DNA of 64,000 nucleotides. It comes from Sandaracinaceae bacterium. GTDB lineage: Bacteria > Myxococcota_A > Polyangia > Polyangiales > Houyiibacteriaceae. A program made the translations under genes and the position numbers. Of this stretch, positions 3,521-55,490 are shown piece after piece. Every line of letters starts with the position of its first letter. The first letter of the stretch is position 1. The stretch is from positions 97,092-161,091 of the forward strand of contig JACKEI010000004.1 of assembly GCA_020633075.1 (NCBI GenBank), in the 5' to 3' direction. Under the pieces are notes generated by a model that did not search any database, had not been told where the DNA came from, and saw only the letters and a list, made by a program, of their open reading frames with translations.

Positions 3521-3750
3521 GGCTCCCGGGCCGGTGCAAGCATGGTTCCACCGCGAAGGGCGCGCCACGACCGGTGGAATTCGCAACGATCTCAGCAATC
3601 AAGGCCGTGTTGGCGCGCCCGATCGCGGTCCCCTGCACGCGGCGGCGTGGGCCCCCTGCCACGTACTCCCGGACCCCACCCGGCCGCGTCTTGGCCCGCG
3701 CGCTGCAGTCTGAGTGAAACGCTTCTTGCGCTTCGGCATACCAACGCCCC

Positions 3751-4284: not shown

Positions 4285-4308
4285 GGCCAGCACACCGCTA
4301 GCGCGTGT

Positions 4309-4329
4309 CGTGCCCTCGCGGAGGGCACG
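4309..4329. terminator. perfect 9-bp stem / 3-nt loop hairpin between convergent genes (possible bidirectional terminator)
   Basis: CGTGCCCTC-gcg-GAGGGCACG read directly. It lies between the stop at 4282-4284 (+) and the stop at 4337-4339 (-). No U-tract, so intrinsic-terminator function is uncertain. Confidence 0.35.
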
Positions 4330-4336
4330 CAGGCTG

Positions 4337-19226: not shown

Positions 19227-21314
19227 TTGCCGCTCCCCGTGTCCACTCAGCGCGCCACCGTCGGTGATCTCGCGCGTACGCTCGAGCGTCGCGTCTACGT
19301 CGACCGGCCCGGCGCCCAGGAGCTGTTCGATCAGCTGCTGGCGTCGGCGGACGGTCGCCCCAGCGTGCTCTTCGTGACGGCTCCGGGAGGCTCGGGCAAG
19401 AGCGTGTGTCTGCGGCTCTTCGAGGCGCAGGCCGAGCAGCGCGGGGTGCGCACCTGTTTTCTGGACGCGCGTGACGTGCCGGCCGACGCGCGGGCGGCCG
19501 AGCTGGCGATCCTCCAGGCCGTGAGCGTGGTCGCCGGGGCCGCGCGAGGCGTGGTCTTCGTGGACACCTTCGAGGCGCATCAGGCCTTGGAGCGCGTCTA
19601 CCGCGAGCGCATCCTGCTGAAGACGCCGCACCACGTGCGCGTCGTGCTCGCTGGGCGGCAGTCGCCCGACGGGGCCTGGGCCACGGACCCGGTGTGGTCG
19701 CAGCTGATGCGCACCTACCGGCTGCCGCTCTTGAGCGACGACGAAGCGCGCGCCCTGCTGCGGGCCCGTGACGTGCCCCAGGCCGAGCAGGCGGAGCTGA
19801 TCCTGCTGGGGCGCGGACACGCGCTGACGCTGGCCTGTCTGGCGACCGAGGGCTTCGACCGCGGGCGCCCGTTTCGCGCCGGCAGCAACCAGCTGGCCGA
19901 GCTGGGCGCGCCCCTGCCCGAGGACGAGAAGCTCGCCATCCTCACGCTGTGCTTGGGCCACTGGGTCCACGAGGCCGACCTCGTGCGGGTGGCGGGCACC
20001 GCGTCGTTCCTGCCGCAGCTCGAGCGCCACGCCTTCGTGGAGCGCGCCGGCACGCGCTGGCGCATCCACGAGCTCTACCGCGACGGCTTCCTCGTGCGCT
20101 TGCGCACGGAACTCCGTGACGCGCTGCCCGGCGTGCTGCGGCGCGGCATCTGGAACGTCATGGCGCGCGTGCGCGAGGAGACCGACTTCGACAAGCGCGT
20201 GCAGCTGCAGTTCGAGGTGGGGTTCTTGCTGCGGGCGGTGCCTCCGGGGGACGGCATCTACGACCTGTTCCACGCAGACCCCTATTACCGCGACGGGCTC
20301 CGCGCCGAGGACGTGCCGCTCATCGTGGCGGCGCTCGAGCGCTTCGAGGGAGCCACCAGCGCGGCGCTCGCCGAGGAGCACCTGCGGCGCTTCCCGGACC
20401 TGTGCCTGGTGCTGCGGGACGCGTTCGGGGCGCCCATCGCCGTGGTCATCTGGATGGAGGCGGCGCGGCTCAGCGAAGAAGACGTGCGCCGGGACCCCGC
20501 CGCCGCTCGGCTGCAGGCCGTCTCCGGTGCCGGGGCGTCCCACCTGGTGCGCTGGTGGTTCACGCTTCACGACTACCAGGCGCCCTCGGCCGCCTTCTCG
20601 CACATCACGGCCTACGCGTCGTCCACGGGCTTCGCGCGGCTGGGGCCTTCGGTGCACGGGCACGTCATCCACACGCTCACGCCCGCCTCGGGCGCGGCCT
20701 GGTACGAGCTGGGGCTCTTGGACCGCATCCCCGAGCTGGAGTTCGAGCTCGAGGGTCACGCGTACACGGTGCTGGGCTACGACTTCCGCGGCGAGACGCA
20801 GCACGAGCGCATGGTGCGCGACATCGAGCGCATGCTGGAGATCGCGGCCAACATGCATGGTGCGCACGCGGCTGCGCCCAGGACGGGGGCGGGCCCGTCG
20901 TCGTCCCCGCCCGAGCCCGCCCTCCAGCGCGTCTGCGCGGTGGCGCCCCGGCCAGCGGGTCTCGACCAGCTTGGGGAGGCCGTGTCCGAGGCCCTGCGCT
21001 GGTACCGCTACGACGACCGCCTGAGCCGCGCTCGGCTGGCGGCGGGCATGCAGACCGAGTCGCCGCTGGACCGTGCCGCGCGGGTGCGGGCCCTGCTCGA
21101 CCAGGCCCACGCGCGCATGCGGCCCACCGGGCGCACCCCCGAGCCGGCCACGCTGATCGCCCGCTCGTACTTCGAGCGCGAGGACAAGCAGCTGGCCATC
21201 GCGCACGACCTCGGCCTCGCCCACGGGACCTACCGCCGGCGCCTGCGCGAGGCCGTGCAGCAGCTGACCGCGTGCGTGGAGAGCGTCTGGGCCGAGGACG
21301 GGGGCACGCTGTGA
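19227..21314 (+). CDS. STAND-type (NB-ARC/AAA_16-like) NTPase with C-terminal sigma70-r4/LuxR-like HTH
   Basis: Walker A VTAPGGSGKS, Walker B VVFVDTFE, RLPLLSDDEARALL and GRGHALTLACLA (GxP-like motif). About 400 aa of unassigned middle region. The C-terminal ..KQLAIAHDLGLAHGTYRRRLREAVQQL.. looks like an HTH. Start is TTG 19227 or GTG 19239. Confidence 0.72.
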   Translation: MPLPVSTQRATVGDLARTLERRVYVDRPGAQELFDQLLASADGRPSVLFVTAPGGSGKSVCLRLFEAQAEQRGVRTCFLDARDVPADARAAELAILQAVSVVAGAARGVVFVDTFEAHQALERVYRERILLKTPHHVRVVLAGRQSPDGAWATDPVWSQLMRTYRLPLLSDDEARALLRARDVPQAEQAELILLGRGHALTLACLATEGFDRGRPFRAGSNQLAELGAPLPEDEKLAILTLCLGHWVHEADLVRVAGTASFLPQLERHAFVERAGTRWRIHELYRDGFLVRLRTELRDALPGVLRRGIWNVMARVREETDFDKRVQLQFEVGFLLRAVPPGDGIYDLFHADPYYRDGLRAEDVPLIVAALERFEGATSAALAEEHLRRFPDLCLVLRDAFGAPIAVVIWMEAARLSEEDVRRDPAAARLQAVSGAGASHLVRWWFTLHDYQAPSAAFSHITAYASSTGFARLGPSVHGHVIHTLTPASGAAWYELGLLDRIPELEFELEGHAYTVLGYDFRGETQHERMVRDIERMLEIAANMHGAHAAAPRTGAGPSSSPPEPALQRVCAVAPRPAGLDQLGEAVSEALRWYRYDDRLSRARLAAGMQTESPLDRAARVRALLDQAHARMRPTGRTPEPATLIARSYFEREDKQLAIAHDLGLAHGTYRRRLREAVQQLTACVESVWAEDGGTL

Positions 21315-21335: not shown

Positions 21336-21929
21336 GTGTCCAACGCGGCCGACGAACGCTGCAGCGCCTTCGCGCTGGGCTACACTCCATGCGTGCGACG
21401 TCCCGTTGATCCCCCTGCGGTCTTGCGCCTCCTCGAGGCGCTGGGCCGCCGTGCTCGCGGGCCTGGTGGGGTGTACCTCACGGGAGGTGCCACCGCGCTG
21501 CTGCTCGGCTGGCGCACGTCGACCAACGACGTGGACATCAAGCTGGACCCGGAGCCCGACGGGGTGTTCGAGGCCATCGCCTCGCTCAAGAACGAGCTGG
21601 ACGTCAACGTGGAGTTGGCCTCGCCAGACCTGTTCATCCCGGAGCTGCCCGGGTGGCGCGAGCGCTCGCGCTTCGTGGGCGAGTTCGGGAAGCTGCAGGT
21701 CTTCCACTACGACCTGCGGGCCCAGGCGCTGGCCAAGCTCGCGCGCGGCGTGGACCGAGACCTGCTGGACGTGCGCGCCATGCTCGACCTGGGCTTGGTG
21801 TCGCGACAGGACCTACGCGACGCCTTCGAGGCCATCCGTACGCGGCTCATTCGCTTCCCGCGCTTGGACGAGGCGAGCTTTGCGGCTGCGGTCGCACACG
21901 TGTGCGATCAGGAAGGGGGCACGCCGTGA
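21336..21929 (+). CDS. minimal nucleotidyltransferase-fold protein (AbiEii / DUF6036-like)
   Basis: GGVYLTGGATALLLGWRTSTNDVDIKLD fits the NTase hG[GS]-x(9-13)-DhD signature and resembles the AbiEii N-terminal motif. GTG start at 21336 (alternative GTG 21393). Confidence 0.68.
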   Translation: MSNAADERCSAFALGYTPCVRRPVDPPAVLRLLEALGRRARGPGGVYLTGGATALLLGWRTSTNDVDIKLDPEPDGVFEAIASLKNELDVNVELASPDLFIPELPGWRERSRFVGEFGKLQVFHYDLRAQALAKLARGVDRDLLDVRAMLDLGLVSRQDLRDAFEAIRTRLIRFPRLDEASFAAAVAHVCDQEGGTP

Positions 21930-22342: not shown

Positions 22343-23221
22343 TCAGCGCAGGTTGGGGGGCACCACGGGCTCGATCCGGTGGCAGGTGGCCTCCGTGAGC
22401 GCGCCCGGCGCGCCCAGCTCGCCCACGGCGGTGATGGCCTTCTCGGCGGCGTCGCCCCACAGCACGCACACGTCCGCGGGCGTGGGCTCGGTCAGACGAA
22501 ACGCGCCGGGCACGCGCACGCGGTTGCCGCAGTCCACCGTGTCGTCCGCCGGCAGCGGCAGGCTCCACTCGCCGGCTTGGTAGACGGCCACGCGCTGCTG
22601 CCCCTCGAGCCCCGGGCGGCAGGTGAGCTGCACGGCGAAGCGGTCGCCCAGGAGGAAGCTGCTGGGGTCCTCCACCACGGCGCCGTCGCGCTCACGTAGC
22701 AGCGTCAGGCTGAGGTCGCTGCGGCTCGGGGTGGCGGCGTCGGTCGCGCCGATGCGCTCCGTGGGCAGGTCGCTGGGGACCACGCGCGTGATGCCACGCT
22801 CCGGGTCCTGCGGGGTGCCGGGCCGGAGGACGACGAGCGCCACGGCCGCCGCCGCCGCGAGCCCGAGCGTGGCGGGCAGCACCCAGCGCGCGCGGGACTG
22901 AAAGCGCGCGGGGCGCACCACCGTCGCGAGCACGGGCTCCGCAGGAGCGGCGTGCGGGGCACGGCGCGCGGGATCGTCCAGTGCAGGCTCGCGCAGCGCA
23001 GGCTCGCGCGGCGCAAGCTCGGCTGACCGTGAGTCTGCGCTCACGTCCAGCGTGGGCAGCGCCACGGGCGCAGCGCACTCCTCTGCGCACGCACGGCAGG
23101 CCGCGCACTCGCGCAGGTGCGCTTCCACGGTGCGCGCTTCATCACCCGTGAGCTCGCCCAGGGCCAGGCGCTCCAGGCGCAGCCAGGAGACCGGGGTGCC
23201 GGTGCAGACGAGCTCACGCAT
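22343..23221 (-). CDS. anti-sigma factor (zf-HC2 type) with one TM helix and a periplasmic domain
   Basis: N-terminal ..AHLRECAACRAC.. (H-x3-C-x2-C), TM WVLPATLGLAAAAAVALVVL, and an 8-nt overlap with the upstream ECF sigma gene. Confidence 0.8.
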   Translation of the reverse strand: MRELVCTGTPVSWLRLERLALGELTGDEARTVEAHLRECAACRACAEECAAPVALPTLDVSADSRSAELAPREPALREPALDDPARRAPHAAPAEPVLATVVRPARFQSRARWVLPATLGLAAAAAVALVVLRPGTPQDPERGITRVVPSDLPTERIGATDAATPSRSDLSLTLLRERDGAVVEDPSSFLLGDRFAVQLTCRPGLEGQQRVAVYQAGEWSLPLPADDTVDCGNRVRVPGAFRLTEPTPADVCVLWGDAAEKAITAVGELGAPGALTEATCHRIEPVVPPNLR

Positions 23222-23729
23222 GAGGCGGCTCCTCTGCGTCTTGCGCGGCGTCGCGGCGCGCGGCCTCGGCGGACATGGCGCCCAGGGCCACCAGCTCGCT
23301 GCGCAGCGTGGCCATGCGGCGCACCACCGTCTTGCGGCTCACGCCCATCACGCTCGCGATCTCGGTCTGGTCCAGGTCGTCCCAGTAGCGGTAGACCAGC
23401 ACCTCGAGCGTGCCCTCGTCCAGCCGGTCCATGAGCTTCAGCAGCAGGTCCTGCCCCAGCGCCTGCTCGTCGCAGCGGGTGCGCACCACGCCGCGCAGCG
23501 CGGGGGTCTCGCGCTCGAGCAGTCGGGTGTGAGTGTTGCGGTCGCGGATCATGGTCAAGCAGCGGTTGGTGAGGGCGCGGTAGAGATAGGGGAGCTCGAC
23601 GTCCAGCGCGGAGCGCGCGTAGAGGTCCGTGAACAGGCCTTGCACCACGTCGAGGGCATCGTCCCGGTTGCCCAGGAGGCGCGTGGCCTTGCGCAGCAGC
23701 GCGGGGCCGTAGCGGCGGTAGATGTCCAT
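23214..23729 (-). CDS. ECF-type RNA polymerase sigma factor
   Basis: ORF 23214..23984 trimmed to MDIYRRYGPALLRKA.. Region 2 (DALDVVQGLFTDLY) and region 4 (LVYRYWDDLDQTEIASVMGVSRKTVVRRM) are recognisable. Confidence 0.9.
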   Translation of the reverse strand: MDIYRRYGPALLRKATRLLGNRDDALDVVQGLFTDLYARSALDVELPYLYRALTNRCLTMIRDRNTHTRLLERETPALRGVVRTRCDEQALGQDLLLKLMDRLDEGTLEVLVYRYWDDLDQTEIASVMGVSRKTVVRRMATLRSELVALGAMSAEAARRDAAQDAEEPPHA

Positions 23730-23748
23730 CGTGAGGAGTGTGGTGCCA

Positions 23749-24609
23749 CTAAGGGGTGGTCCTGCAAGCGCGGTAGGCGCCGTTGGGGTGCGCGTCGTCC
23801 AGCAGCACCTGGCAGGTCTCGCCCGCGCCGCAGCTCGCGTCGTCGGCGCACTCGCTGCAGGCCTGCCAGCCCGCGATGGGCGCGCACACGCCGCTGCCGC
23901 ACTCTGCGGCGGCCTCGCAGGCCACGCCCAGCGGACGGTTCTCCACGGTGACCGGGTCCACGCAGCCGCTCGCCACGCGGACACCGAAGTGCGCGATGAC
24001 GGCGCGCCCCTCGCCGCGCTTGTGGATGCGGAAGCGCATGCGGCCAGGCCAGGTGGGCACGCTGGTGAGAAAGGACACGGGCTCCCAGTCGCTAGCGGCC
24101 ATGGGCTGCGTGTGGTCCACGGTGCCGTCCGCGCCGTAGTCCACCTCGATCTGCACCTGCGCGCCGGGCTCCACGTCGGCCGTCACGTCGAACTGCAAGC
24201 AGCCGCCCGTTCCGGAGCTCACCTGCCAGATGCAGTCGTTGGTGTCCGGGACATAGAGCCCATCCAGCGAGGCGCAGACGCTCTCTACGTCCTCCGGGGG
24301 TACCTCGAGCCCCTCGGCGTCCATTCGCTCGCTGGTGGGCTTGCCCGTGACCTGCGACAGGACCGTGGGGGTCTCCACCAGGTCCACGCCATAGTCACTG
24401 GGGTGCCAGGTGCCCACGCGGGCGATGCGTCCGGCTTCGAGGTCCCAGCTGCACAGGGTGTCCCCGCACCAGGCTTGGAACGACGGGTCTTCGACCTCTT
24501 CTTCGCAGCCCGAGAAGAGCAGGGTGACGAGGGCCAGGCCGGCGAGTGCGCGGCGGCGCGCAGGGAGCGACACGGGATGGAGCGAGATGGTGTGCAGAGT
24601 CTTGGTCAT
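23749..24609 (-). CDS. hypothetical Cys-rich lipoprotein
   Basis: MTKTLH..LALVTLLFSGCEEE lipobox. Lies 12 nt after the caspase gene and 19 nt before the sigma gene. Confidence 0.65.
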   Translation of the reverse strand: MTKTLHTISLHPVSLPARRRALAGLALVTLLFSGCEEEVEDPSFQAWCGDTLCSWDLEAGRIARVGTWHPSDYGVDLVETPTVLSQVTGKPTSERMDAEGLEVPPEDVESVCASLDGLYVPDTNDCIWQVSSGTGGCLQFDVTADVEPGAQVQIEVDYGADGTVDHTQPMAASDWEPVSFLTSVPTWPGRMRFRIHKRGEGRAVIAHFGVRVASGCVDPVTVENRPLGVACEAAAECGSGVCAPIAGWQACSECADDASCGAGETCQVLLDDAHPNGAYRACRTTP

Positions 24610-24621
24610 GAGCGCCTCGAT

Positions 24622-26355
24622 TCAGAACTGAGCCTGGAAGCCCGTGAGGATGGTCGGGCCGCCGCTGTCGTGGCGGTCGCCCAGGTTGTTGCGGAGGATG
24701 GGGGCGTAGCTGTAGCCCCCCTGTAGGTAGAACCCCGCGCGGCGGCCGGGCATGACGCGCAGGCCCAGCGCGGCCGACAGCGTGACCCCGTAGTCCGTGA
24801 GGACGTTGGTGGGCTCCTGCTCCCGGCCCGGGTTGAAGCGGGTGCGCGCGATGCCCAGCCCGAGGCCGCCTTGGGCGTAGCCGTACAGCCAGTGCCCCGC
24901 GAGCGGCACGGTGCCGCGCAGCTGCGCGCCCACGGACCAGGCTCGCCAGGAGTAGTCGTCGTCCGAGTCGTCGAAGAAGACCCGGTCGAACCGCTGCACC
25001 TCCAGCTGGTCGAAGGTGAGCAACACGCTGAAGTGCCGAGAGACCGTGCGCTCCACCGCGAGCGCCATGCGTGGCGTCCAGTCCGCCGAGAACAGCCCGC
25101 GCGTGAAGCCGAAGTCGTTCAGCCGTTGGGTGTAGTCGCTTGCGCGTCCTCGGCGGCCGAAGCCGAAGCCGAGCTCGAAGGCCCAGGTCCGGGTGGGACC
25201 CGTGCGCGCCTCGCGGGCGGTGGCTTGTTCGGCGGTGATCTCTTGGCAGCTGCTGGCGCTGAGGGTGTGCACGCCGCGCGCCGGAAGCGTGATGTCGCAG
25301 CTGCGGATGACGCGCTGGCCGCGCCACAGCACGTGGTAGCGCCCCGGCGGTAGGGCCAGCCGCAGCGCAGCGCCCGAGGCCTTGGTGAGCTCCGCCATGA
25401 CGGCGTCGCCGCGCGCGCGGGTGATGAGCAGCTGCCCCTCGAGCGCGGCGGGCAGCTCCAGCTGGGCCGAGGCGCGTGCCGGGTAGGTGAGCGCCACCGC
25501 GCCGTGGCCCGTGAGGTTGGTGACCAGCGTCACGTGCTGTCCGCCCACGGCCGTGCGCGAGGTGTCCAGCAGGGTCTGCGCGTAGGCGTAGCGGTAGGCC
25601 TCGTCCAGCGCGACGCGGCCGTCGCGGTCTTCGTCGGCGCCGCCGCGCAGGGCCACCAGCAGGTGGTGCGTGAAGTAGCCGGCCGACAGGCGCTCGGACT
25701 CTTGGCTGAGCTCGTCGCCGCTGCTGCTGGCCATCACGGCCACGCCGCGCGTCTGCAGCTGCGTGATGGAGTTGTGCGAGAAGTCCGCCGTGGCGTCGGC
25801 GCCGCGCACGCGGGAGTAGGCGCCGCTCTGGCACGCGTCCAGCACCACCAGCGTGAGCGTGGTGGGCAGCGCGTCGATGGCGGCGCGCAGCTCGCTCAGC
25901 GGGAACTCCTCGCCGCCCAGGCGCAGGGCTTGGGCTTGGGCGTGGCCCGAGTAGTAGAAGAACACCACGCTCTGCTCGTCGCGCGCGGCGTGCGTGGCCA
26001 GGCGCTGACGCAGGCGGCGCAGGGCGCCGGCCAGCTGGGCGCGCGTGGGGGAGCGCAGGAGGTCCACGCTTCCCGCCGGGTAGTGCCCCAGCTCCACCAG
26101 CACCTCGGCCATGCGCTGCGCGTCGCGCTCGGCGAAGGCCAGCGGCTCCTGACCGGGGCCGCCCGGGTTGCTGCCCACCACCAGCGCGTAGGCGTGCGCG
26201 TCCGGGGCGAGGTCCAGGCGCTGCGGGCGTGCGTCCGCCGGCGCGGGCTGGGCCTGGGCGGGGGCCGGGGTGGCGCCGGTGTGCAGCAGGAGCAGCAGGG
26301 CGAGCGGGGCTAGCCGGGCTAGCGAAGTCGCGATGGAGGTGTGCGTTCGAGGCAT
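24622..26355 (-). CDS. caspase-family (peptidase C14) domain protein fused to a C-terminal outer-membrane-type beta-barrel
   Basis: Signal peptide. C14 catalytic dyad contexts VVFFYYSGHA (His) and LVVLDACQSG (Cys). The C-terminal ~200 aa have alternating-hydrophobic strands and end ..TILTGFQAQF (terminal Phe, OMP-like). Confidence 0.82.
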   Translation of the reverse strand: MPRTHTSIATSLARLAPLALLLLLHTGATPAPAQAQPAPADARPQRLDLAPDAHAYALVVGSNPGGPGQEPLAFAERDAQRMAEVLVELGHYPAGSVDLLRSPTRAQLAGALRRLRQRLATHAARDEQSVVFFYYSGHAQAQALRLGGEEFPLSELRAAIDALPTTLTLVVLDACQSGAYSRVRGADATADFSHNSITQLQTRGVAVMASSSGDELSQESERLSAGYFTHHLLVALRGGADEDRDGRVALDEAYRYAYAQTLLDTSRTAVGGQHVTLVTNLTGHGAVALTYPARASAQLELPAALEGQLLITRARGDAVMAELTKASGAALRLALPPGRYHVLWRGQRVIRSCDITLPARGVHTLSASSCQEITAEQATAREARTGPTRTWAFELGFGFGRRGRASDYTQRLNDFGFTRGLFSADWTPRMALAVERTVSRHFSVLLTFDQLEVQRFDRVFFDDSDDDYSWRAWSVGAQLRGTVPLAGHWLYGYAQGGLGLGIARTRFNPGREQEPTNVLTDYGVTLSAALGLRVMPGRRAGFYLQGGYSYAPILRNNLGDRHDSGGPTILTGFQAQF

Positions 26356-26515
26356 CTTGTCTGTGCTAACTCGCGAAGGGTCTCGGGTGGGACAGGGGCG
26401 GGTGTTTTTTCTGCGGGCGCTTCGCGGCGGGGCGCAGGCGGCCGGTTGGGAGAGCGTGTGGCAAGTGTGGGCCGTGCACCGCTATGCTGCGGGCTCGATG
26501 CACCAGGAGGGCTTC

Positions 26516-28911: not shown

Positions 28912-29892
28912 CTAGTGCGGCTCGAACACCTCGCCCAGGCTCGCGGCGCTCAACACGCGCCCAATCAGGCGCTGCAGCTGGTCCGCGTCGGCCGCGTCGA
29001 TGCGCGCGCTGGTCGTGCCGTCGAGGGCACCAAAGCGCTGGCCGAGCAGGCTGCGCAACGTGTCCCGAAGCGCGCGTGCCCGACCTTGCTCGGTACCTTG
29101 CCGCAAGCCCTCGAGGACACCTTCTTGCCTGAGTTGATCTGCGATGGATGCCAAGGGAGCCTCCGCGGCGGGGACGTTTTCGAGGATGGTGCGACGCAGC
29201 TCGTCGAAGGAGGGCGGACCCGTCCGCTGCAGAATGTAGCGCAGAAAGACGCGGGCATCATCGGGGGCGTGGAGCAAGACATGGTGGAGCTCGGCGCTCA
29301 AAGCCGGGAGGTGCGCCAACAGCGCGTCCGCCTTGCGTCCGTCGCGGAGCAACCAGATGGCCACACGCGGCACCGGAGTGAGTGGGCGCGCCAACAGCTG
29401 GCTGTCCGAGACGTGTGCCAAGTCGTCGATCAGCAGCTCGAGGTTGGGGACGAACGGTCGCAGCTGAGGGAACTCGTCGAGACCCTCGACCATCTCGTGG
29501 AGGCTGCGAGGTGCGGTCCATCCCCCGGGGCCGTGGTGCACGATCAGCGTCAGCACCGGTGGCAGCGTCTTCCGGCCACGCTCATTCCTCAAGAGCTTGG
29601 ACCACACGCGTTGGAGGTATTCCAGCACGCGGAGCGGCATGAGCGGATCGGGCCGGCTCTGATGCTCCATGAGGAGGTACAGGTAGACCAGTCTGCCCCC
29701 CAACGGCACGCGGAAGAGTAGGTCGGTGTGGCGGTGCGCCATGTCGGGGCCGACGAAGGTGCCCGGGATGTGTTCGAGGCGACTCAGGTCCAGCGCTGCG
29801 AGCAGCACGGCTGGCAGGACGCAGCGCAGCTCCGCCGCGGCGTTGGCAGGCACCGCGAAGATGCGCTTGAACAGGGTGTCGTAGTCACCCAT
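28912..29892 (-). CDS. Rpn-family recombination-promoting nuclease / putative transposase (PD-(D/E)XK, YhgA-like) with DUF4351-like C-terminus
   Basis: YDTLFKRIF.., TDLLFRVPLGGRLVYLYLLMEHQSRPDPLMPLRVLEY.. and C-terminal ..LGQRFGALDGTTSARIDAADADQLQRLIGRVLSAASLGEVF match the family pattern. GC visibly lower than neighbours. Confidence 0.8.
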   Translation of the reverse strand: MGDYDTLFKRIFAVPANAAAELRCVLPAVLLAALDLSRLEHIPGTFVGPDMAHRHTDLLFRVPLGGRLVYLYLLMEHQSRPDPLMPLRVLEYLQRVWSKLLRNERGRKTLPPVLTLIVHHGPGGWTAPRSLHEMVEGLDEFPQLRPFVPNLELLIDDLAHVSDSQLLARPLTPVPRVAIWLLRDGRKADALLAHLPALSAELHHVLLHAPDDARVFLRYILQRTGPPSFDELRRTILENVPAAEAPLASIADQLRQEGVLEGLRQGTEQGRARALRDTLRSLLGQRFGALDGTTSARIDAADADQLQRLIGRVLSAASLGEVFEPH

Positions 29893-35544: not shown

Positions 35545-38500
35545 CTAGCGCTTGCGGCGCCGCACTCGGTGGCCGAGCGCCAGCAGCGCGAGGACGCCGA
35601 GTGGCAGCATGGGGTGCGCGCCAGGCGCGCCGTCGCCCACCACCACGCAGCTGCAGCCGCCGCCACCGTCGGGCCTCGGGGTCACGCCCATGTCACCGGC
35701 CGCGCCGCCGTCGGGGGTCATGCCGCCGTCGGGGTTCGCGCCGGCGTCGTCGTTGCCGGCGTCGTCGCCGCCTCCGTCGGTTGTCACGCCCGCGTCGTCG
35801 CCGCCGCCTAGTCCGGCGTCCGTGGGGACGCCCGCGTCGGTGCTGGTGCCGGCGTCGGTGGGGACGCCCGCGTCGGTGCTGGTGCCGGCGTCGGTGGGGA
35901 CACCGGCGTCCATCATGTTGCACGCGGGGTTGGCCTCGTGCGAGCACGCGCTGGCGACGCACGCGTCTAGCGTGCACGGGTCGCTGTCGTCGCAGTCGCT
36001 CGCGGAGCTGCAGCAGCCGGCCGCCGGAGCGCCGAAGACGCACACGTGGTTCACCGTGTCGCAGCTGTCGGCGGTGCAGCTGTTGCCGTCGTTGCAGTCG
36101 CTCGCGGAGCTGCAGCAGCCAGCCATTGGGGGTCCGGCTTGGCAGTAGCCGCGCGCTAGGTTGCAGGTGTCCACCGTGCACACGTTGCCGTCGTTGCAGT
36201 CCGCGTCGCTCATGCAGCAGCTGTTCACGTCACTGGGGCACTGCGTGCTCGACCCCGTGCACAGCTCCTCCACGTCACAGGAGTTGGTGGACGCGCGGCA
36301 CAGCGTGGTGGCCGGCGCGTACCTCGACACGCAGCTGCCCGCCATGCAGGTGTCCTGCGCGTCGCACGGGCCACTCGGGTCGCCCCCGCAGCCCACGCCG
36401 TTCTTGGCGTTGACGTCATCCGGCGGGCAGCTCGCGCTGCTGCCCGTGCACGTCTCGGCCACGTCACACTCGCCGCTCGCCGGGCGACAGGGGGTCCCCA
36501 TGGCGACCCAGCGCGCGACGCAGGTGTTGGCCATGCACAGGTCCTGCGCGTCGCACAGACCGCTGGGCGCGCCCCCGCAGGGCGTCCCGTTCAGCGCGCT
36601 GAGGTTGTCGGCCGGGCAGCTGGCCGAGCTCCCCGTGCAGGTCTCAGCGGCGTCGCAGGGACCCACGGAGCTGCGGCAGACGGTGCCGCTGCTGGCGTAC
36701 CGCGCGACACAGCTGCCCGCCATGCACTGGTTCTGGGCGTCGCACACGCCCGAGGGCGCACCGCCACAGGACGTTCCGTCGGGCGCCGAGGCGTTGGCGG
36801 GGCAGGCCATGTTGCCCACGGCGCACGTCTCCGCCACGTCGCAGGCGTTGCCCGGGGTGGCGGCGCGGCACACCACCGTGGGCGCTGCCGCCGCGCTCAG
36901 GCCGGTGCAGGTGCCATCCGTGGTTCCACCGGCCGCCACGCTGCAGGCCATGCAGTCGTTCGCGTTGCCCCCGCCGCAGCTCGACCCGCAGCAGACGCCG
37001 TCCACGCACACCGTGCTCGAGCACTGGTCGCTCGTGTCGCAGGCCTCCCCCAGGCCGCGCAGCACGCTGAAGACGTAGGCCGCCCCGGCGTCGCTGGCGT
37101 CCACGTCGCTGAGCGGCGCGCCCACGATGACGGTGTGTCCGTGGGCTGCCACCGCGCGGCCGAAGTCGTCGGCGTCGGAGTCATCCACGCCAGGTGCGGC
37201 CAGCACCGCGTTGGGCGTCCAGGCGCCCGCCTGGCGATGGTAGGGCACCACCACCCCCACGTCCGTTCGCCCCGCGTTCTCGCGGCCGGGCGCGCCCACC
37301 ATGAGCGTGTCGTTGGAGAGCGCCAGCGTCGCGCCGAACTCGTCGCCCATGACGGCGCCCGCCAGGGTCACCACGCTCTCCGTGTTCCACGCCACGCCGT
37401 TGCGCGTGAAGGTCCGGAAGCTGCCGGCGCCCATGGCCGTGCCCCCCACGGGCACAGCGGGGGCGCCCACCGCCACGCGCGCGCCGAAGATCGCCACGGC
37501 CTTGCCGAAGGCGGAGCCCGCGGTGGGTGGGCCCGCGAGGATGCCCTGCTGAGTCCAGGTGACGCCGCTGCGCGCGAACACGTAGCCAATGCCGATGTCC
37601 TGCGCGCCGCCGCCACCGTCGCGACCGGGCGCACCCACCACCAGCGTGTCGCCCTCCACCGCCACGGCGTAGCCGAAGCCGTCCAGGTCGCTGCCGTTGG
37701 ACGCGCTGAGCACGGCCTGCTGCGCGAACGTGCCGGCCTGATCGACGAACACGTACACCGCGCCGCGTCCGTTGCCCGCGCCGTCGGCGCCATACGCGCC
37801 CACCGCGAGGGTGCCAGCGTCCAGGCTGAGGGAGACGCCGAAGGCGTCACCGGCGACGACGCCCACAGGCGCGAGCGCGGTGAGTGAGGACCAGGTGGTC
37901 CCGGTGCGGCGCGCCACGTACACGGTGTTGGCTCCGCCGTTGAGGCTCCCGATGGCCAGCACGTCTCCGTCGAGCGCGAGCGCGCCGCCCATCAGCTGGT
38001 GGCCGGGCACCTCGATGCGCGCTTGCGTCGACCACGTGGTGCCGCTGCGCACGAAGATGGTGACGGCGCCCGCGTTCGGGCCGATCCCGTCGTCGTGGGT
38101 CGCTCCGACCGCTGCCGTGTCGCCGTCGATCACCACCATGCGACCGAAGCGGTCCGTGTTGACCGAGTCTGGCGTGAGGTAGGTCTCGGTGGTGTTCGTG
38201 GCGACGTTCTGGCTGCGCACGCGCCCCGCGTCGAGCCCGTGAGTGTCGTCGCCGGGGATGCCGAAGAGGGCCACCTGAGCGGTGGTGGACGCGGCGACCC
38301 CGGGCATGGCGCAGGCGCCGCCCGCGGCGTCACCCGTGACCGCACCGGTGAAGCGCTCCACGAAGGTGGTCGCGAAGGCGGCGCTGAGCGTGTAGCGATA
38401 GAGGGCGCCCTGCCCACCGAGGAGGGCCGCCGTGTCCACGCCCGGCGCACCGATGATGACGTGGTCCGTGGTCCCGGCCTCGGAGAACGACACGCAGGTG

Positions 38501-40268: not shown

Positions 40269-41582
40269 CTACGGCGAGATGCCGTAGACGGTGCCCGGCC
40301 AGGGGATGACGTCCGCGGTCGCGTTGCTGCACTCGCGAAAGACGTTGCTGCCGAAGGCCATGGGTGTCCCGTCCGTGGTGACGAGCACGGTGTGGTTTCC
40401 GCTCGCGACGACCTGGGCCACGGCGTCGCCCTCCACGACGTCGCGGGGCGTGCGTGCGCACGGTGTCGCGCCGCAGTCGTCGAGCGCGCCGCTGCTGTTG
40501 CCCACCTGCCCGACCGTGTCGTTGCCGAAGCACCGCAGCTGGCTGTCGTCGAGCAACACGCAGGTGTGCTCGTCGCCTGCCACCACGCGGGACGCGCTGG
40601 CCAGGTCCGTCACACGCAGCGGCGTCCACGCGCAGGGCTGGCCCGCGCAGGTGTCCGGCGCGGCGTTGCCCACCCCCAGCTGTCCCACGTCGTGCAGGCC
40701 GAAGCAGTGCGTGCGGCCGAGCGTGTCGAGCGCGCAGCCGTGCCTCGCGCCCAGGGCCACGTCCGTGGCGTTCGCGACCAGCAGGGCCGTGGGCGTACTG
40801 ACGGCCTCGCTGGCGCTCATGCCGACGCCCAGTGAGCCACCCACGTTGCGTCCGAAGCACAGTGGCGCTCCGCCCGCGCGCAACACGCAGGTGCCGAAGG
40901 GTCCCGTGCGCAGCCCGCGCGCGTCGGTGATGCCGGGCACCTCCACGGCGTCGAGCGCGCAGCGTCGCGTCTCGCCTGCGGTCAGCCCGAGCCTGGCCTC
41001 TTGCGCGGCGTCCACGAGGCCGCAGTCGCTCAGCGTCGCCGGGTCCACCCCCAGCGCGCCGTGGTTGCCCAGGCCCCAACAAGCGACGGTTCCGTCGTCG
41101 CGTCGCGCACACACGTGCTCGCGCCCCGCGGCCAGCTCCACGATGACGCCGCTGACGTCGCTCTCGAGCGGCTGCACGTGCGGATCTGGGTCACGCGTGC
41201 CGCGCGCGAGCGCGCCGAAGGCGTTGCTGCCTGCACACCACACGGCGCCCTCGAGGACCACGCAGGTGAACGCATCGCCCAGCGCGACGGAGCTCGCGTT
41301 GCGCAGCGCGAAGGTGCTGGGGAAGAACTCGCAGGGCTCTCCGTTGCAGACCGCGTGCAGGCTGGCGGGCTCGAGGGAGAGCTGCCCCGCGCCTCCCGCC
41401 CCAAAGCACTGCAGGCGCCCGCTGTCCGACAGGATGCAGCTGCTGCGCGGCCCCGCGAAGGGTACGAGCGAGGCACCCTCACCCCCGTCGCCCCCCAGGT
41501 CGACGGCCATGGTGCAGCCGAGGGACGCGAGCGCGAGCAGCGCGCCACAGGCGGAGGTGAGGGTCCCGCGCGTGCGCGTCAC
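40269..41582 (-). CDS. RCC1-repeat (beta-propeller) lipoprotein, cassette 1
   Basis: GTG start overlapping the upstream stop (GTGA). Lipobox LASLGC. Seven C[FW]G.N..G[QA]LG-type repeats (LQCFGAGGAGQLS, VACWGLGNHGALG, THCFGLHDVGQLG, LRCFGNDTVGQVG...). Confidence 0.8.
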   Translation of the reverse strand: MTRTRGTLTSACGALLALASLGCTMAVDLGGDGGEGASLVPFAGPRSSCILSDSGRLQCFGAGGAGQLSLEPASLHAVCNGEPCEFFPSTFALRNASSVALGDAFTCVVLEGAVWCAGSNAFGALARGTRDPDPHVQPLESDVSGVIVELAAGREHVCARRDDGTVACWGLGNHGALGVDPATLSDCGLVDAAQEARLGLTAGETRRCALDAVEVPGITDARGLRTGPFGTCVLRAGGAPLCFGRNVGGSLGVGMSASEAVSTPTALLVANATDVALGARHGCALDTLGRTHCFGLHDVGQLGVGNAAPDTCAGQPCAWTPLRVTDLASASRVVAGDEHTCVLLDDSQLRCFGNDTVGQVGNSSGALDDCGATPCARTPRDVVEGDAVAQVVASGNHTVLVTTDGTPMAFGSNVFRECSNATADVIPWPGTVYGISP

Positions 41583-42517: not shown

Positions 42518-42530
42518 GGTGCCCTCCGCG

Positions 42531-43079
42531 TCATGGGGTGCCTCGCTTCGGGCGCAGCCGCTGTACGGCGGCCGTGAACTCCCCGCGCGCCAGGCGCAGG
42601 CGGGAGTAGCCGGTGTTGAGTGGGATCTCGAGGGCTTGCGCGATGTCCGGCATCGAGATGCCGTCCAGCTCGTGCATCACGAAGACCGCCCGGCGAGACT
42701 CGTCGACGGCAGCCAGCGCGCGCAGGACCAGGTCGCGGTCTTGCTGGGCCTCCAGCCGGTCATGCGCGTTGGCGCTCTCGTCCGTGCCCTCGGTGTCGTC
42801 CCGCAGCTGCTCACGCCGATTGCTCGCCTTGCGGCGGTAGTCGGACGCGCAGTTCGCGGCGATGCCGAAGAGCCAGGGCTTCAGGGGCCGCGCGGGGTCG
42901 TAGTGATGGGCTTTGCGATGCACGATGATGAAGACGTCGTGGGTGAGATCCTCGAGGTCGGCTGTGCGCACGTCCAGACGCCGGAGGGTGTTCCAGACGT
43001 ACTTGAAGTGCGTACGGAAGACCTCGTCGACGACGAGGCCGTTCTCAGGAGGTCGGGGCGGCGGTGACGAATCCGTCAT
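42531..43079 (-). CDS. ECF-type RNA polymerase sigma factor, cassette 1
   Basis: ORF 42531..43136 trimmed to MTDSSPPP.. (ATG overlapping the upstream stop as ATGA). Region 2 DLEDLTHDVFIIVHRK..PWLFGIAAN and region 4 AVFVMHELDGISMPDIAQALEIPLNTGYSRLRLAR. Confidence 0.9.
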   Translation of the reverse strand: MTDSSPPPRPPENGLVVDEVFRTHFKYVWNTLRRLDVRTADLEDLTHDVFIIVHRKAHHYDPARPLKPWLFGIAANCASDYRRKASNRREQLRDDTEGTDESANAHDRLEAQQDRDLVLRALAAVDESRRAVFVMHELDGISMPDIAQALEIPLNTGYSRLRLARGEFTAAVQRLRPKRGTP

Positions 43080-44311
43080 CGAAGTCTCACACCCACGCCG
43101 ATCGAGGCCAAGACCGACACCGGCGCACCCTGCCATACCTCGGCGCCATTCAGCTGCAGGCTCGGGCGCAGGAGGGGCACATCGGCCGCCACGCGCAGCC
43201 CCAGCGAGACCCGCTCGCCCAGCGCGCGATCGTAGCCGAGCGCGAGCGCCAAGCCCGCTGCGACACCCACGCCACGCTTGGCGTTGGTGACCCCTTCACC
43301 CCGCGCCGGCATCACCCCGGCGAACGCACCCAGGCACCCACGCAGCCCAGCCCCCACGGCGCAGCCCAGCGCGCGCACATCTAGCTGGTAGCCACGCACC
43401 CGTCCGCCACCCGCCGCCGCCGCCTCTGCAGGCAGCCACGCACGCACCCCAAGCTCCGACCCCAGCCAGCCCCGGTCCACGTTCAGCCGCAGCCCAGCCC
43501 CGGGCCGCACCCGAGGCACCACTTCCCACCCCACCAGCAGGTCGAGCCCAACCACCACGACCCGCCCCCGCCCCCCCAATTCCGCCCCGGCCCCCAACTC
43601 CGCCCCCGACTCCGCCCCCGACTCCGACTCCGCCCCCGACTCCGCCCCCGACTCCGCCCCCGCCCCCGACTCCGACCTCCGACCCCGACTCCGACTCCGA
43701 CTCCGACCCCGACTCCGACTCCGACTCCGCCCCGACTCCGACTCCGACCTCCGACTCCGACTCCGACTCCGACTCCGCTCCCCCCCCCGCCCCCGCCCCC
43801 GCCCCCCCCCCCGCCCCGCCCCGCCCCCCCCCCCCGCCCCCGCCCCCGGCGGCCCCAACAGGCTCACCGGGTCAATCGCGACGCTGATCGCCAGCGCAAC
43901 ACCGCGCGCCAGCTCCTCGCAGTCGCGTGTCCGCGACCGGATCTCACGCTGCCCCACCTGTTCCCCGGCGGCGTCGAACACGTCCACGGTCGCCATCAGC
44001 CCGCCGCGCTCGCCTCGAATGACGGTTCGCACGTGCTGTGGGGCGGCATCCCGAAAGGGCACGTAGCCCAGCCGCGCGGACACGGCGTCCCGCAGCTCGG
44101 CCTCGTCGGGGCACTGCTCGGCGCCGCGCTGGCGCTCGTAGGTCAGGCTCGAGGTGGGGTGCTCATCCTGGTCGGCCCCGGTGGTCGCAGCTTCCTCGCG
44201 GCCTTGCGCGTGCACCGCGTCGGCTACCCCCGCCTGCCCCAGCGCGAGCGCCAGCACGAACAGCGGAGCTGCGGCGGAGCGGGTGACGCGGTGGCTCATG
44301 GGCGCTCGCAT
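43076..44311 (-). CDS. secreted protein with an N-terminal two-Cys domain, a G/R/S/E low-complexity insert and a C-terminal beta-rich (barrel-like) half, cassette 1
   Basis: ORF 43076..44533 trimmed to MRAPMSHRVTRSAAAPLFVLALALGQAGVADAVHA (signal). The flanking domains align by eye with the 54350-55435 product. Alternative ATG at 44299. Confidence 0.62.
   Translation of the reverse strand: MRAPMSHRVTRSAAAPLFVLALALGQAGVADAVHAQGREEAATTGADQDEHPTSSLTYERQRGAEQCPDEAELRDAVSARLGYVPFRDAAPQHVRTVIRGERGGLMATVDVFDAAGEQVGQREIRSRTRDCEELARGVALAISVAIDPVSLLGPPGAGAGGGGGAGRGGGRGRGRGGERSRSRSRSRRSESESGRSRSRSRGRSRSRSRGRRSESGAGAESGAESGAESESGAESGAELGAGAELGGRGRVVVVGLDLLVGWEVVPRVRPGAGLRLNVDRGWLGSELGVRAWLPAEAAAAGGGRVRGYQLDVRALGCAVGAGLRGCLGAFAGVMPARGEGVTNAKRGVGVAAGLALALGYDRALGERVSLGLRVAADVPLLRPSLQLNGAEVWQGAPVSVLASIGVGVRLR
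43561..43860 (-). repeat. ~300-bp hexanucleotide microsatellite (CCGACT and CCCCCG units on the + strand) with poly-C runs of 9, 11 and 12 nt
   Basis: Read directly. CCGACT-type units run ~43607-43778. C-runs sit at 43780-43788, 43802-43812 and 43824-43835. This is the G-rich sense strand of gene 43076-44311 and encodes ..GGGGGAGRGGGRGRGRGGERSRSRSRSRRSESESGRSRSRSRGRSRSRSRGRRSESGAGAESGAESGAESESGAESGAELGAGAELGG.. Confidence 0.95.
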
Positions 44312-44427
44312 GATGGCGCCCTCATAGCAGATCGGCGAAGCGAATTCGTGGCGCTGGAGCGCGAGGGCACCCCAAGCATATGCGCGCGCAGCGGAGCTTC
44401 TTCCCTGCGGCGGGCGGCGGACTAGGG

Positions 44428-44453
44428 GACGCTCGCCCTCCGCACACGGTTCC
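44428..44453 (-). promoter_or_regulatory. candidate ECF-type promoter GGAAC-N17-CGTC upstream of cassette 1
   Basis: Minus-strand reading acGGAACcgtgtgcggagggcgagCGTC (GGAAC = 44453..44449, CGTC = 44431..44428), about 115 nt upstream of ATG 44311. Motif match only. Confidence 0.25.
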
Positions 44454-54334: not shown

Positions 54335-54349
54335 CAAAGCGGGCGTTCG

Positions 54350-55435
54350 TTACCGTGCGAAAAATAAAACACCGCAGGTCCCCCCAAAGCCTACGCTGCG
54401 GAAGCGCCCAACCTGCCCCAGCCCTGCCACGACGAAGTCGGGCTGCGTGATGCGCAGCTCGGCCTCCACGCCGCAGCGCAGCGTGCCCCGGCCGGGCTCG
54501 CGGCGGCCCACGACGAGGGTGGGCGCGAGCGACACGGCGCTGTAGACGCGCGCCCGGTGCAGGTTGGTCTCCAGCCCGAGTCCGCGCGAAAGGCTCGCGC
54601 CCACCTGCAGCGCCGCACACGCTCCCACTCGCACGCGCTCACTGACGGCGGGCAGCGCGCACAGCATGGGAGCCAGGGTCACGGTCGCGGCGCGGGCCAC
54701 CCGCTCCCCGGCGTGCCGGAGCGGAGCGTAAGGCGTCGCGCCCAGCTGCAGCCCCAGCGCGAGCCAGGCGTGCCCCACGAAGAGCGCGCTCAGCGCCAGC
54801 TGCGGCACCAGCGGGGCGTCCCCCAGGCCCGACACCACCCTGGCGCCCACGTCGAAGGCCCAGCGTGACGTCTGCGGACCCGTGCCGGCGTCCGTGGTGA
54901 GCACGCCGCTCCCGGGGGCCGCGTCCGCCTCGCTGCCTGCCGCCGTGGCCTCTTGCGCGTCGGCCAGCGCGACGCTCACCACGATGATGGCCGAGCGCGC
55001 CACCTCCGCGCAGCTGCTGCCCTCGACGACGCGCTCCCCCTCGTAGCCGGCGCGGGCCACGCGGATGGTGGCCTGGTACCCGCCCCCGCGCTCCTCGATC
55101 ACGACGCTCACCTGCGTCTCGGCTAGCGCCTCGCGCAGCTCGTCGGGCACCACGGCGTCGAAGATCGGGCGCACGGCGTCCAAGGTCGGGCACGCGTCGG
55201 GCGCGCTCCAGCGCAGGGCGGCGTCCACGTTGCGAGCGCCGGCCGCCGCCCGTGCGGCTCCGCCGGCGGTGCCGGCCCCGTCGGTCTGCGCGGAGCCCGC
55301 CGGGGGGTCCTGCGCGGCAGCCCCAGGCGGCGCGGTCGCGCTCAGCCCGGCGCAGGCCCACAGCAGCACCAGGGCCCGCCCCAGCCGGGGTCGCCCCCAT
55401 CCGTCGCGAACCCCTGCGACTGCGTGTTGGAACAT
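54350..55435 (-). CDS. secreted protein with an N-terminal two-Cys domain and a C-terminal beta-rich (barrel-like) half, cassette 2
   Basis: ATG start. Signal ..LVLLWACAGLSATAPPGAAAQ. ..CPTLDAVRPIFDAV..VSVVIEERGGGYQATIRV..SSCAEVARSAIIVVSVALAD.. then alternating-hydrophobic strands ending ..GGTCGVLFFAR. Aligns with 43076-44311 but lacks its low-complexity insert. Confidence 0.65.
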   Translation of the reverse strand: MFQHAVAGVRDGWGRPRLGRALVLLWACAGLSATAPPGAAAQDPPAGSAQTDGAGTAGGAARAAAGARNVDAALRWSAPDACPTLDAVRPIFDAVVPDELREALAETQVSVVIEERGGGYQATIRVARAGYEGERVVEGSSCAEVARSAIIVVSVALADAQEATAAGSEADAAPGSGVLTTDAGTGPQTSRWAFDVGARVVSGLGDAPLVPQLALSALFVGHAWLALGLQLGATPYAPLRHAGERVARAATVTLAPMLCALPAVSERVRVGACAALQVGASLSRGLGLETNLHRARVYSAVSLAPTLVVGRREPGRGTLRCGVEAELRITQPDFVVAGLGQVGRFRSVGFGGTCGVLFFAR

Positions 55436-55490
55436 CCGCGCAGACGATACTCGGCCCGCCTGGGACCGTCCACACGCCGCGGAGAGGCCC

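Follow-up and report, generated by a model that had tools for sequence, protein, structure and literature searches.

A recurrent four-gene cassette of Myxococcota that joins a metacaspase-like outer-membrane barrel protein and a lipoprotein to an ECF sigma factor and its anti-sigma factor

Introduction

To our knowledge, few of the widespread bacterial metacaspases have a known substrate or role. Myxobacteria encode dozens of extracytoplasmic function (ECF) sigma factors, the inputs of which are mostly unknown. An association between metacaspases and sigma factors has been known since 2012, when four of the five metacaspases of Myxococcus xanthus were reported in operons with sigma factors and the same operon structure was listed for Anaeromyxobacter, Haliangium, Sorangium, Ralstonia and Fibrobacter (Asplund-Samuelsson et al., 2012, PLoS One 7:e49888, PMC3501461). 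Here we describe an operon of this class in a 64,000-nucleotide stretch of a Sandaracinaceae genome (contig JACKEI010000004.1; hereafter the window, to which all positions refer), located at 22343-26355 on the minus strand. In this myxobacterium a gene encoding a C14 (caspase-family) peptidase shares one operon with an ECF sigma factor gene.

The tables of the 2012 study list M. xanthus operons arranged as sigma factor, transmembrane protein, caspase and lipoprotein, including the 577-aa caspase MXAN_6683. The copies from M. xanthus, Anaeromyxobacter and Haliangium were ordered sigma factor, transmembrane protein, caspase, while the entry of Sorangium So ce56 was ordered caspase, hypothetical protein, ECF sigma factor (PMC3501461). 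The operon described here likewise combines a C14 protein, an ECF sigma factor and a transmembrane protein with the lipoprotein often present in those operons, and its order is identical to that of So ce56. However, the 2012 study lists the association only, with no barrel anchor, no zinc-binding anti-sigma (ZAS) factor with a cassette-specific periplasmic domain, no promoter and no mechanism.

Two further systems involve caspase-fold proteins and anti-sigma factors. The M. xanthus protein DdvA is a ZAS anti-sigma factor fused to a periplasmic TPR-CHAT module, and a first (site-1) autocleavage before that by RseP has been proposed (PMC11506125, 2024). The DdvS-DdvA pair and the present operon are alike in being myxobacterial ECF pairs with a ZAS domain and a periplasmic caspase-fold His/Cys module. 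However, the DdvA module is CHAT and not C14, is fused to the anti-sigma factor, works on itself in trans as a dimer and lacks a complete active site, whereas the protease described here is a separate, outer-membrane-anchored protein with a lipoprotein as its companion. The target of DdvS is a CBASS/CRISPR island, of which no counterpart was found near this cassette. The second system is craspase (type III-E Cas7-11 with the TPR-CHAT protein Csx29), which is reported to target putative anti-sigma factors (cited in PMC11506125). It resembles the proposal made here in that the protease has a caspase fold and its reported substrate is a putative anti-sigma-like protein, but craspase is a cytoplasmic, RNA-guided system of CRISPR defence and its components are unrelated in sequence to those described here.

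In the sigmaE pathway of Escherichia coli the anti-sigma factor RseA is cut by DegS and then by RseP, and other site-1 proteases are PrsW, which acts on RsiW, and Prc/CtpA in cell-surface signalling. Such pathways share with our locus a single-pass anti-sigma factor with a periplasmic domain, an envelope signal and a dedicated periplasmic trigger protease, the last being a proposal in the present case. However, the known site-1 enzymes are serine proteases or metalloproteases in or near the inner membrane and are usually encoded outside the sigma factor operon; we know of none among them that belongs to the C14 family and is held at the outer membrane. The FecA-FecR-FecI system has the same three tiers of outer-membrane protein, inner-membrane anti-sigma factor and ECF sigma factor, and here, as there, the outer-membrane component may act as sensor and also be made from the regulated operon. 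It differs in using a 22-strand TonB-dependent receptor with a signalling domain together with FecR, where the present cassette has an eight-strand barrel that carries a protease. Pfam searches of the cassette proteins found no TonB-dependent receptor, plug or FecR match, and we do not assign the cassette to the FecA/FecR/FecI type.

A literature search for orthocaspases or metacaspases in connection with anti-sigma factors, ECF sigma factors or M. xanthus found no functional study of such operons. The caspase-sigma association is thus not new, and the DdvA case has already raised the same mechanistic idea. What the present analysis adds is the outer-membrane barrel anchor, the cassette-specific periplasmic domain with a conserved basic site, the conserved promoter, the permuted paralogues and, in this subfamily, the obligate lipoprotein partner.

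The four-gene operon and its recurrence

The operon consists of the following genes.

24622-26355, minus strand: caspase-barrel gene, 577 aa
23749-24609, minus strand: lipoprotein gene, 286 aa
23214-23729, minus strand: ECF sigma factor gene, 171 aa
22343-23221, minus strand: zf-HC2 anti-sigma factor gene, 292 aa

The genes are arranged head to tail in the order caspase-barrel, lipoprotein, sigma factor, anti-sigma factor, with spacings of 12, 19 and -8 nt when the minus strand is read directly. The caspase stop codon TGA (24622-24624) is followed by 12 nt, atcgaggcgctc, which contain GAGG, and then by the lipoprotein ATG at 24609. The lipoprotein stop codon TAG (23749-23751) is separated by 19 nt from the sigma factor ATG at 23729. 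The sigma factor stop and the anti-sigma factor start overlap in the 8-nt sequence ATGCGTGA (23214-23221), and in most of the other loci analyzed this overlap is 4 nt. Downstream of the operon a convergent plus-strand neighbour ends at 22264; upstream, a divergent plus-strand gene starts at about 26516, leaving 160 nt of intergenic DNA before the caspase gene. Searches for sigma-70-type promoters and intrinsic terminators inside the four-gene unit found none, which is weak evidence in DNA of 72% G+C, the value for the whole window.

To compare the operon with others, a pattern scan with one genome per species identified 427 caspase relatives, and the best 80 loci were kept. They came from metagenome-assembled genomes (MAGs) of Polyangia and from Labilithrix luteola. 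A total of 66 of the 80 were informative in having at least 2.6 kb of sequence downstream of the caspase gene. All four genes were present in the same order and on the same strand in 64 of these 66, with median gaps of -1, +6.5 and -4 nt. Over the 80 loci, phmmer detected the lipoprotein in 76, the sigma factor in 76 and the anti-sigma factor in 70; wherever found, these genes followed the caspase gene on the same strand and in unchanged order, and the lipoprotein gene was immediately 3' of the caspase gene in 76 of the 80. Most of the incomplete loci end at a contig edge. No homologue of the genes flanking the operon in the window was found in any of the 80 loci and there was no conserved fifth gene, so the four genes are the unit.

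The spacing of the operon by itself is ordinary, and short gaps are common in compact genomes, as an explanation by chance adjacency of unrelated genes would have it. That explanation is refuted by comparison across species: 64 of 66 loci have the same four genes in one order, and their flanks all differ; this conservation places the arrangement beyond chance. The first-pass annotation had described the four genes as one tight operon and had proposed linkage of caspase and sigma factor genes in other genomes as a check. The operon is supported both by the 12/19/-8 nt spacing and by cross-species conservation, and the check gave a strongly positive result. We are therefore nearly certain that the four genes form an operon and that this operon is a recurrent cassette.

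One locus also carries a second arrangement. At positions 2173-5098 of locus L029, a paralogous cassette ordered ECF sigma factor, zf-HC2 anti-sigma factor, C14 caspase lies directly upstream of a cassette in the canonical order. Its anti-sigma factor and caspase matched the present family in hhalign with probabilities of 98% and 100%, respectively. Since L029 carries homologous cassettes in both orders, the invariant core is sigma factor, anti-sigma factor and caspase. The recurrence of the cassette in hundreds of relatives suggests that the protease is probably part of the signalling circuit of the sigma factor. Our tentative view is that the operon is a copy of a four-gene cassette for envelope signalling that is conserved in Myxococcota and may be transcribed as a single unit from a conserved upstream promoter.

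The flanks of the operon (28912-29892, minus strand; 19227-21314 and 21336-21929, plus strand) contain a YhgA-like transposase (PF04754, E = 6e-34), a STAND NTPase-like gene and a DUF6036 nucleotidyltransferase gene. The STAND NTPase match was weak and below threshold (30 bits against a cut-off of 34). None of these three was conserved beside the cassette in the other genomes.

The caspase-barrel protein

The caspase-barrel protein has the same sequence (100% identity) as a "caspase family protein" of a Sandaracinaceae MAG (Polyangia, Myxococcota) and has more than 1000 homologues, each of about 550-580 aa. It comprises a signal peptide, a C14 domain, a beta-sandwich and an eight-strand outer-membrane barrel. 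The N-terminus with the signal peptide reads ...LLLLLHTGATPAPAQAQ. An AlphaFold2 (AF2) model built with 29 homologues had a mean predicted local distance difference test (pLDDT) score of 81.7, and the domains were delimited as follows.

25561..26196, minus strand: C14 metacaspase-like catalytic domain, aa 54-265 (Pfam, AF2 and Foldseek)
25237..25494, minus strand: beta-sandwich linker domain, aa 288-373 (AF2 strands, pLDDT about 90)
24625..25185, minus strand: eight-strand OmpA/OmpX-like barrel, aa 391-577 (AF2 and Foldseek)

The catalytic domain matched Peptidase_C14 (PF00656) with 56.4 bits against a cut-off of 21.4 (E = 4.5e-15), as did all 29 aligned homologues. The caspase fold was modelled at aa 54-265 with pLDDT mostly of 83-96, and Foldseek matched it to Arabidopsis metacaspases 4 and 9 with a probability of 1.0. 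A PDB search with the single caspase-domain sequence gave no matches; the metacaspases were reached with the family profile, in which AEDDA aligned to LRGCxND and YSGHA to YSGH of metacaspases 1, 4 and 9. Residues D78, S136, H138, D173 and C175 were invariant in 80 of 80 full-length family members. The His-Cys dyad consists of H138 (SGHA) and C175 (DACQSG), while D78 aligned to the Asp of LRGCxND. In metacaspase structures (TbMCA2) Asp residues of these motifs form an acidic S1 pocket that selects Arg or Lys, and D78 and D173 are the putative equivalents here. Since the dyad and the putative S1 Asp residues are invariant and align to metacaspase motifs, the protein appears to be an active, basic-specific metacaspase-like protease.

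The beta-sandwich contains two Cys residues, C353 and C370, that were conserved in 81 of 81 sequences. It had no Pfam match, and no homology with the periplasmic domain of the anti-sigma factor was detected.

The barrel is preceded by a helix at aa 375-384 and was modelled as eight long antiparallel strands (aa 391-576) with pLDDT mostly above 90. The top Foldseek matches in the PDB were the OmpA transmembrane domain, Ail, OmpX, OmpW and NspA (E = 4e-9 to 1e-6), with target TM-scores of 0.56-0.76. The Pfam family OMP_b-brl (PF13505) scored 19 bits in the window protein against a cut-off of 28.7; it matched 14 of the 29 homologues (best E = 6e-7), and among homologues in the databases many are already annotated with PF13505 by precomputed assignment. 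The protein ends in GFQAQF, and a terminal F, Y or W was found in 35 of 81 members, the others having short extensions. In small outer-membrane barrels both termini are periplasmic, which would place the protease domain on the inner face of the outer membrane. Thus, the protease domain is most likely periplasmic and tethered to the outer membrane. The invariant dyad and the confident eight-strand barrel in AF2 and Foldseek bear out the outer-membrane-tethered caspase-like protease that had been proposed from the sequence alone.

Between the last two strands lies a near-invariant segment, AP..N.GD.HDSGG (aa 556-577; 24625-24690), in which H562 was conserved in 71 of 81 members, G565 in 79 and G566 in 77. 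The segment is predicted to be an external loop. Its conservation together with this predicted position suggests that the barrel may be more than an anchor.

An N-terminal passenger followed by a C-terminal barrel, with a helix just before the barrel, is superficially like type V secretion. The caspase might accordingly be displayed on the surface in the manner of an autotransporter, or act as an executioner in cell death, predation or defence, with the ECF pair merely timing its production. Bacterial metacaspases are often discussed in the context of cell death (PMC3501461), and the best NCBIfam match of the protein was a conflict-system caspase type, though far under the cut-off (61.5 against 140 bits). 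However, the barrel has eight strands and is closest to OmpA, OmpX and Ail, while autotransporter barrels have 12; membership in the type V autotransporters was rejected on these grounds. The pore of small eight-strand barrels is too narrow to export a folded domain, and no conserved defence or toxin genes were found nearby. We consider a surface-displayed or death-related protease very unlikely.

The lipoprotein

The lipoprotein has a lipobox, LFSG-C, the Cys of which was invariant in 38 homologues. A conserved N-terminal motif, WCG..LC.W...TWH..D.GV, is followed by a beta-rich middle part; the core is conserved and the Cys-rich tail is variable. Weak Dickkopf_N and Myxo_Cys_RPT matches were found in the tail, while the conserved core matched no Pfam family.

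The barrel protein and the lipoprotein might together be an outer-membrane sensor that binds the anti-sigma factor and passes on a conformational signal, in the style of FecA-FecR or RcsF-OMP. The caspase would then process something else, for example the Cys-rich tail of the lipoprotein or itself. The architecture of outer-membrane protein, inner-membrane anti-sigma factor and ECF sigma factor is indeed that of cell-surface signalling, the near-invariant barrel loop motif suggests a binding site, and a conserved lipoprotein core with a variable tail is in keeping with such a role. However, the invariance of the dyad and of the putative S1 pocket in 80 of 80 members suggests that proteolysis itself is under selection. 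In addition, the Pfam searches found no TonB-dependent receptor and no FecR-type domain, and the lipoprotein is dispensable in loci L016 and L070. We therefore regard signalling without proteolysis as quite unlikely, and the same holds for the alternative substrates of the caspase that it entails.

The sigma factor and the anti-sigma factor

The sigma factor matched Sigma70_r2 (35.8 bits, cut-off 24), Sigma70_r4_2 (35.7, cut-off 25.7), Sigma70_ECF (24, cut-off 21.1) and TIGR02937 (52.9, cut-off 42.9). With 171 aa and regions 2 and 4 only, it is an ECF (group 4) sigma factor. The main text of Casas-Pastor 2021 mentions no caspase-linked ECF group.

The anti-sigma factor matched zf-HC2 with 28 bits against a cut-off of 22.2. 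In its ZAS motif, H-x3-C-x2-C, the residues H35, C39 and C42 were each at least 90% conserved, and the family profile of this domain matched RslA, DdvA, ChrR and RsiW in the PDB. One transmembrane helix at about aa 113-132 is followed by a linker and a periplasmic domain. With the N-terminal motif, the single transmembrane helix and the adjoining ECF sigma factor gene, the protein is a class I ZAS anti-sigma factor. Its periplasmic part is located as follows.

22346-22729, minus strand: anti-sigma factor periplasmic domain, about aa 165-292, about 125 aa, with four conserved Cys

No Pfam family was found for this domain among 42 + 118 homologues. An exhaustive HMMER search with the domain yielded 468 clusters at 50% identity, and in nearly all of them the domain is C-terminal in a protein of about 230 aa; a word-indexed homologue search using the domain alone gave two matches and was uninformative. 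The domain is essentially confined to this anti-sigma family and its cassette. At its N-terminal edge a K/R-G pair was present in 40 of 42 homologues, and the Lys was at least 90% conserved in 118.

Two candidate relationships of the periplasmic domain were rejected. DUF4384 (PF14326) gave no match at E <= 0.1 in the 42 + 118 members; the paralogous anti-sigma factor of L029 had a sub-threshold DUF4384 match (18.9 bits against 27, E = 0.0016). Kinship with Sushi/CCP domains was suggested by three eukaryotic Sushi-repeat giants (P0129, P0131 and P0184), which score through summed weak repeats (E down to 7e-35 over 22 repeats). The Sushi-like segment covers 22502-22645, that is aa 193-240 of the anti-sigma factor and residues 36-83 of the 135-aa query. 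Since Pfam Sushi does not match the anti-sigma factor itself, the likeness is probably a convergence of Cys patterns.

A promoter-like motif upstream of the caspase gene

A conserved two-part motif was found in the intergenic region before the operon.

26364..26394, minus strand: promoter-like motif TGTCCCA-N13-GCGAGTTAGCA, ending 8 nt upstream of the start codon (ATG) of the caspase gene

The family consensus upstream of the caspase gene was GTTCCCA-N11-CTxGCGxGTTAAC. A position weight matrix (PWM) was trained on the caspase upstream regions of the loci and used with a threshold of 20 bits. Over 2.08 Mb (both strands) of the 80 loci it gave 67 matches of at least 20 bits, and 63 of these were immediately upstream of a caspase gene and on the caspase strand, in 63 different loci out of the 80. 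In the 64 kb of the window there was a single match of at least 12 bits, at 26394-26364. Since the PWM was trained on the same upstream regions, the specificity within the loci and not the presence of the motif is the meaningful result.

Strong matches outside the caspase upstream regions included L059 at 7290 (+) and L031 at 6871 (-), one just after the anti-sigma gene and the other facing a divergent gene. These matches may mark extra regulon members.

With such short or negative gaps there is no space for an intergenic promoter ahead of the sigma factor gene. The simplest reading is one transcript from the motif upstream of the caspase gene. We infer that the motif is recognised by the cassette's own sigma factor, which would amount to autoregulation.

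The position of the motif also bears on whether the protease is an output of the sigma factor and not its input, which is the main rival to a signalling role. The anti-sigma factor could sense through its own periplasmic domain, and the caspase-barrel protein and the lipoprotein would then be regulated effectors that do not act on it, with roles such as envelope protein turnover, remodelling, or the processing of secreted or surface proteins. A promoter before the caspase gene makes the protease and the lipoprotein the first products of the transcript. Elsewhere in the neighbouring DNA (about 1 Mb) there were almost no matches to the motif, and the operon itself may thus be the main regulon. 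Moreover, effector genes are often co-transcribed with ECF/anti-sigma pairs, as in sigV-rsiV-oatA and carQRS. However, a pure output role leaves unexplained why the periplasmic domain of the anti-sigma factor is confined to the cassette and why sigma factor, anti-sigma factor and caspase stay together through permutations of gene order, and the regulon scan covered only a small part of each genome. On balance, we think it unlikely that the protease and the lipoprotein are effectors only, and the particular effector roles named are doubtful to the same degree.

A possible role of the protease in signalling

The reading that we prefer is a signalling protease, to which we give a probability of about 0.4 as a whole. 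The protease domain would hang in the periplasm beside the lipoprotein and the periplasmic domain of the anti-sigma factor, and an envelope or external cue would be sensed by the barrel loops, the lipoprotein or both. The protease would then cut the anti-sigma factor after a basic residue, and a candidate site is the K/R-G pair conserved at the N-terminal edge of its periplasmic part. This site-1 cut would lead to intramembrane proteolysis and to release of the sigma factor. The freed sigma factor would drive its own promoter, and protease, lipoprotein, sigma factor and anti-sigma factor would rise together. Since the sigma factor would raise the whole operon, the outer-membrane protein would combine the roles of sensor and output, like FecA in the Fec system. 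By this analogy the roles of the protease as sensor or trigger and as output need not exclude each other.

The more specific proposal makes the metacaspase, anchored in the outer membrane, a site-1 protease dedicated to its cognate anti-sigma factor; it would act in trans at K/R-G, with the cue sensed by the barrel loop, the lipoprotein or both. In this strict form the idea is possible but rather doubtful.

Support for a cut in the anti-sigma factor is indirect and comes from the presumably shared compartment, the cassette-specific domains and the conserved K/R-G. Several points weigh against a signalling protease. The anti-sigma factor of the window itself lacks the exact K-G and has P-S-R-S, with an Arg two positions later in the MAFFT alignment. 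From its outer-membrane anchor the enzyme would have to reach a domain that is attached to the inner membrane, and no site-2 protease is encoded in the cassette. In L016 and L070 the lipoprotein gene is absent and the caspase gene is directly followed by those of the sigma factor and the anti-sigma factor. The conserved promoter before the caspase gene fits protease and lipoprotein as regulated output equally well, and the motif was hardly present elsewhere in the DNA examined. Finally, recognition of the motif by the cassette's sigma factor is itself only presumed, and its -35 half, TTCCCA, differs from the usual ECF GGAAC.

The other two ECF loci in the window

Only three ECF sigma factor genes were detectable in the 64-kb window, at the positions reported by the first-pass annotation (23729, 43079 and 54334). 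The features of the second and third loci are as follows.

42531-43079, minus strand: locus 2 ECF sigma factor
43076..44311, minus strand: locus 2 upstream protein, secreted, with a two-Cys domain, an R/S/G/E-rich linker and a beta-rich C-terminus
53774-54334, minus strand: locus 3 ECF sigma factor
54350..55435, minus strand: locus 3 upstream protein, secreted, with a two-Cys alpha/beta domain and an eight-strand barrel

The sigma factor genes of loci 2 and 3 start 0 and 15 nt, respectively, past the stop of the upstream gene. The two sigma factors are paralogues of each other, and phmmer detected no relation between either and the sigma factor of the caspase operon. In both loci the order is secreted protein, ECF sigma factor, transmembrane protein with a TPR/YfiO-like C-terminus and RCC1-repeat protein; zf-HC2 is absent from the transmembrane proteins of both. 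This second cassette type thus occurs twice in the window, at 40269-44311 and 51469-55435 (minus strand). The locus 3 arrangement (gaps of 15, -4 and -4 nt) was found again in two metagenome contigs (L081, 6001-9592; L082, 241-3835).

The AF2 model of the locus 3 upstream protein was of moderate quality, with a mean pLDDT of 65 (49-84 in blocks of the barrel) and eight strands at aa 192-359, for which the top Foldseek matches were OmpW, OmpA, NspA and Ail with target TM-scores of 0.6-0.7. In the locus 2 protein, a paralogue of the locus 3 protein, the N-terminal two-Cys domain resembled its counterpart (E = 0.001), and the C-terminal half gave only a weak co-linear hhalign match. The caspase barrel showed nothing significant against the C-terminal halves of either protein (BLASTP; hhalign probability 19%). 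A common barrel homology across the three loci was therefore rejected: the fold class is common, with no detectable homology in sequence.

The earlier statement that a barrel-like gene precedes every ECF sigma factor gene thus holds for the caspase locus and locus 3, on AF2 and Foldseek evidence, and probably for locus 2, where the hhalign match is weak. The further suggestion of interchangeable modules on a common barrel was overstated, since the caspase barrel has no detectable sequence similarity to the barrels of the other two loci and the anti-sigma-like proteins there are of a different, TPR/YfiO-like type. Aligning the three barrel-like halves, as had been proposed, revealed no detectable similarity of the caspase barrel to those of loci 2 and 3. 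The barrel-first pattern is that of two unrelated cassette families with the same layout and not of modules swapped on one scaffold.

Further features were observed around these loci. A promoter-like motif, TGTGGAC-N15-CCGAGTATCGT, is located at about 55445-55485 (minus strand) before locus 3 and is shared with the L081 homologue (about 5915-5955). Locus 2 has a classical ECF-like GGAACC-N17-CGTCC at about 44425-44452 (minus strand), about 110 nt upstream of the gene. The linker of the locus 2 protein (aa about 225-320; 43500-43900), between the N-terminal domain and the beta-rich C-terminus, is a long low-complexity stretch in which Arg, Ser, Gly and Glu abound (RSRSRS...ESGAESGA). A secreted protein of 1530 aa is encoded at 35545-40137 (-), directly beyond the downstream end of the locus 2 cassette, with repeats that look FG-GAP-like by eye and a long Cys-rich tail.

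Biological meaning

The link between caspases and sigma factors was catalogued in 2012, so the value of the present analysis is in the anatomy of the cassette and in its testability and not in the discovery of the association. The cassette pairs one protease family with one anti-sigma family (about 470 clusters at 50% identity). This specific pairing and its wide recurrence make for a clean hypothesis that is genetically testable in cultured M. xanthus, Sorangium and Labilithrix. Should the protease be the trigger, the DdvA and craspase theme of a caspase cutting an anti-sigma factor would be extended to a two-protein, two-membrane system. A site-1 role would give a large family of bacterial metacaspases a physiological substrate and role, and would add to ECF signalling a protease family and a site of action, the outer membrane, that are both new to it. 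If the protease is instead the output, it would be an envelope protease under dedicated stress control. Either outcome, trigger or output, would be informative.

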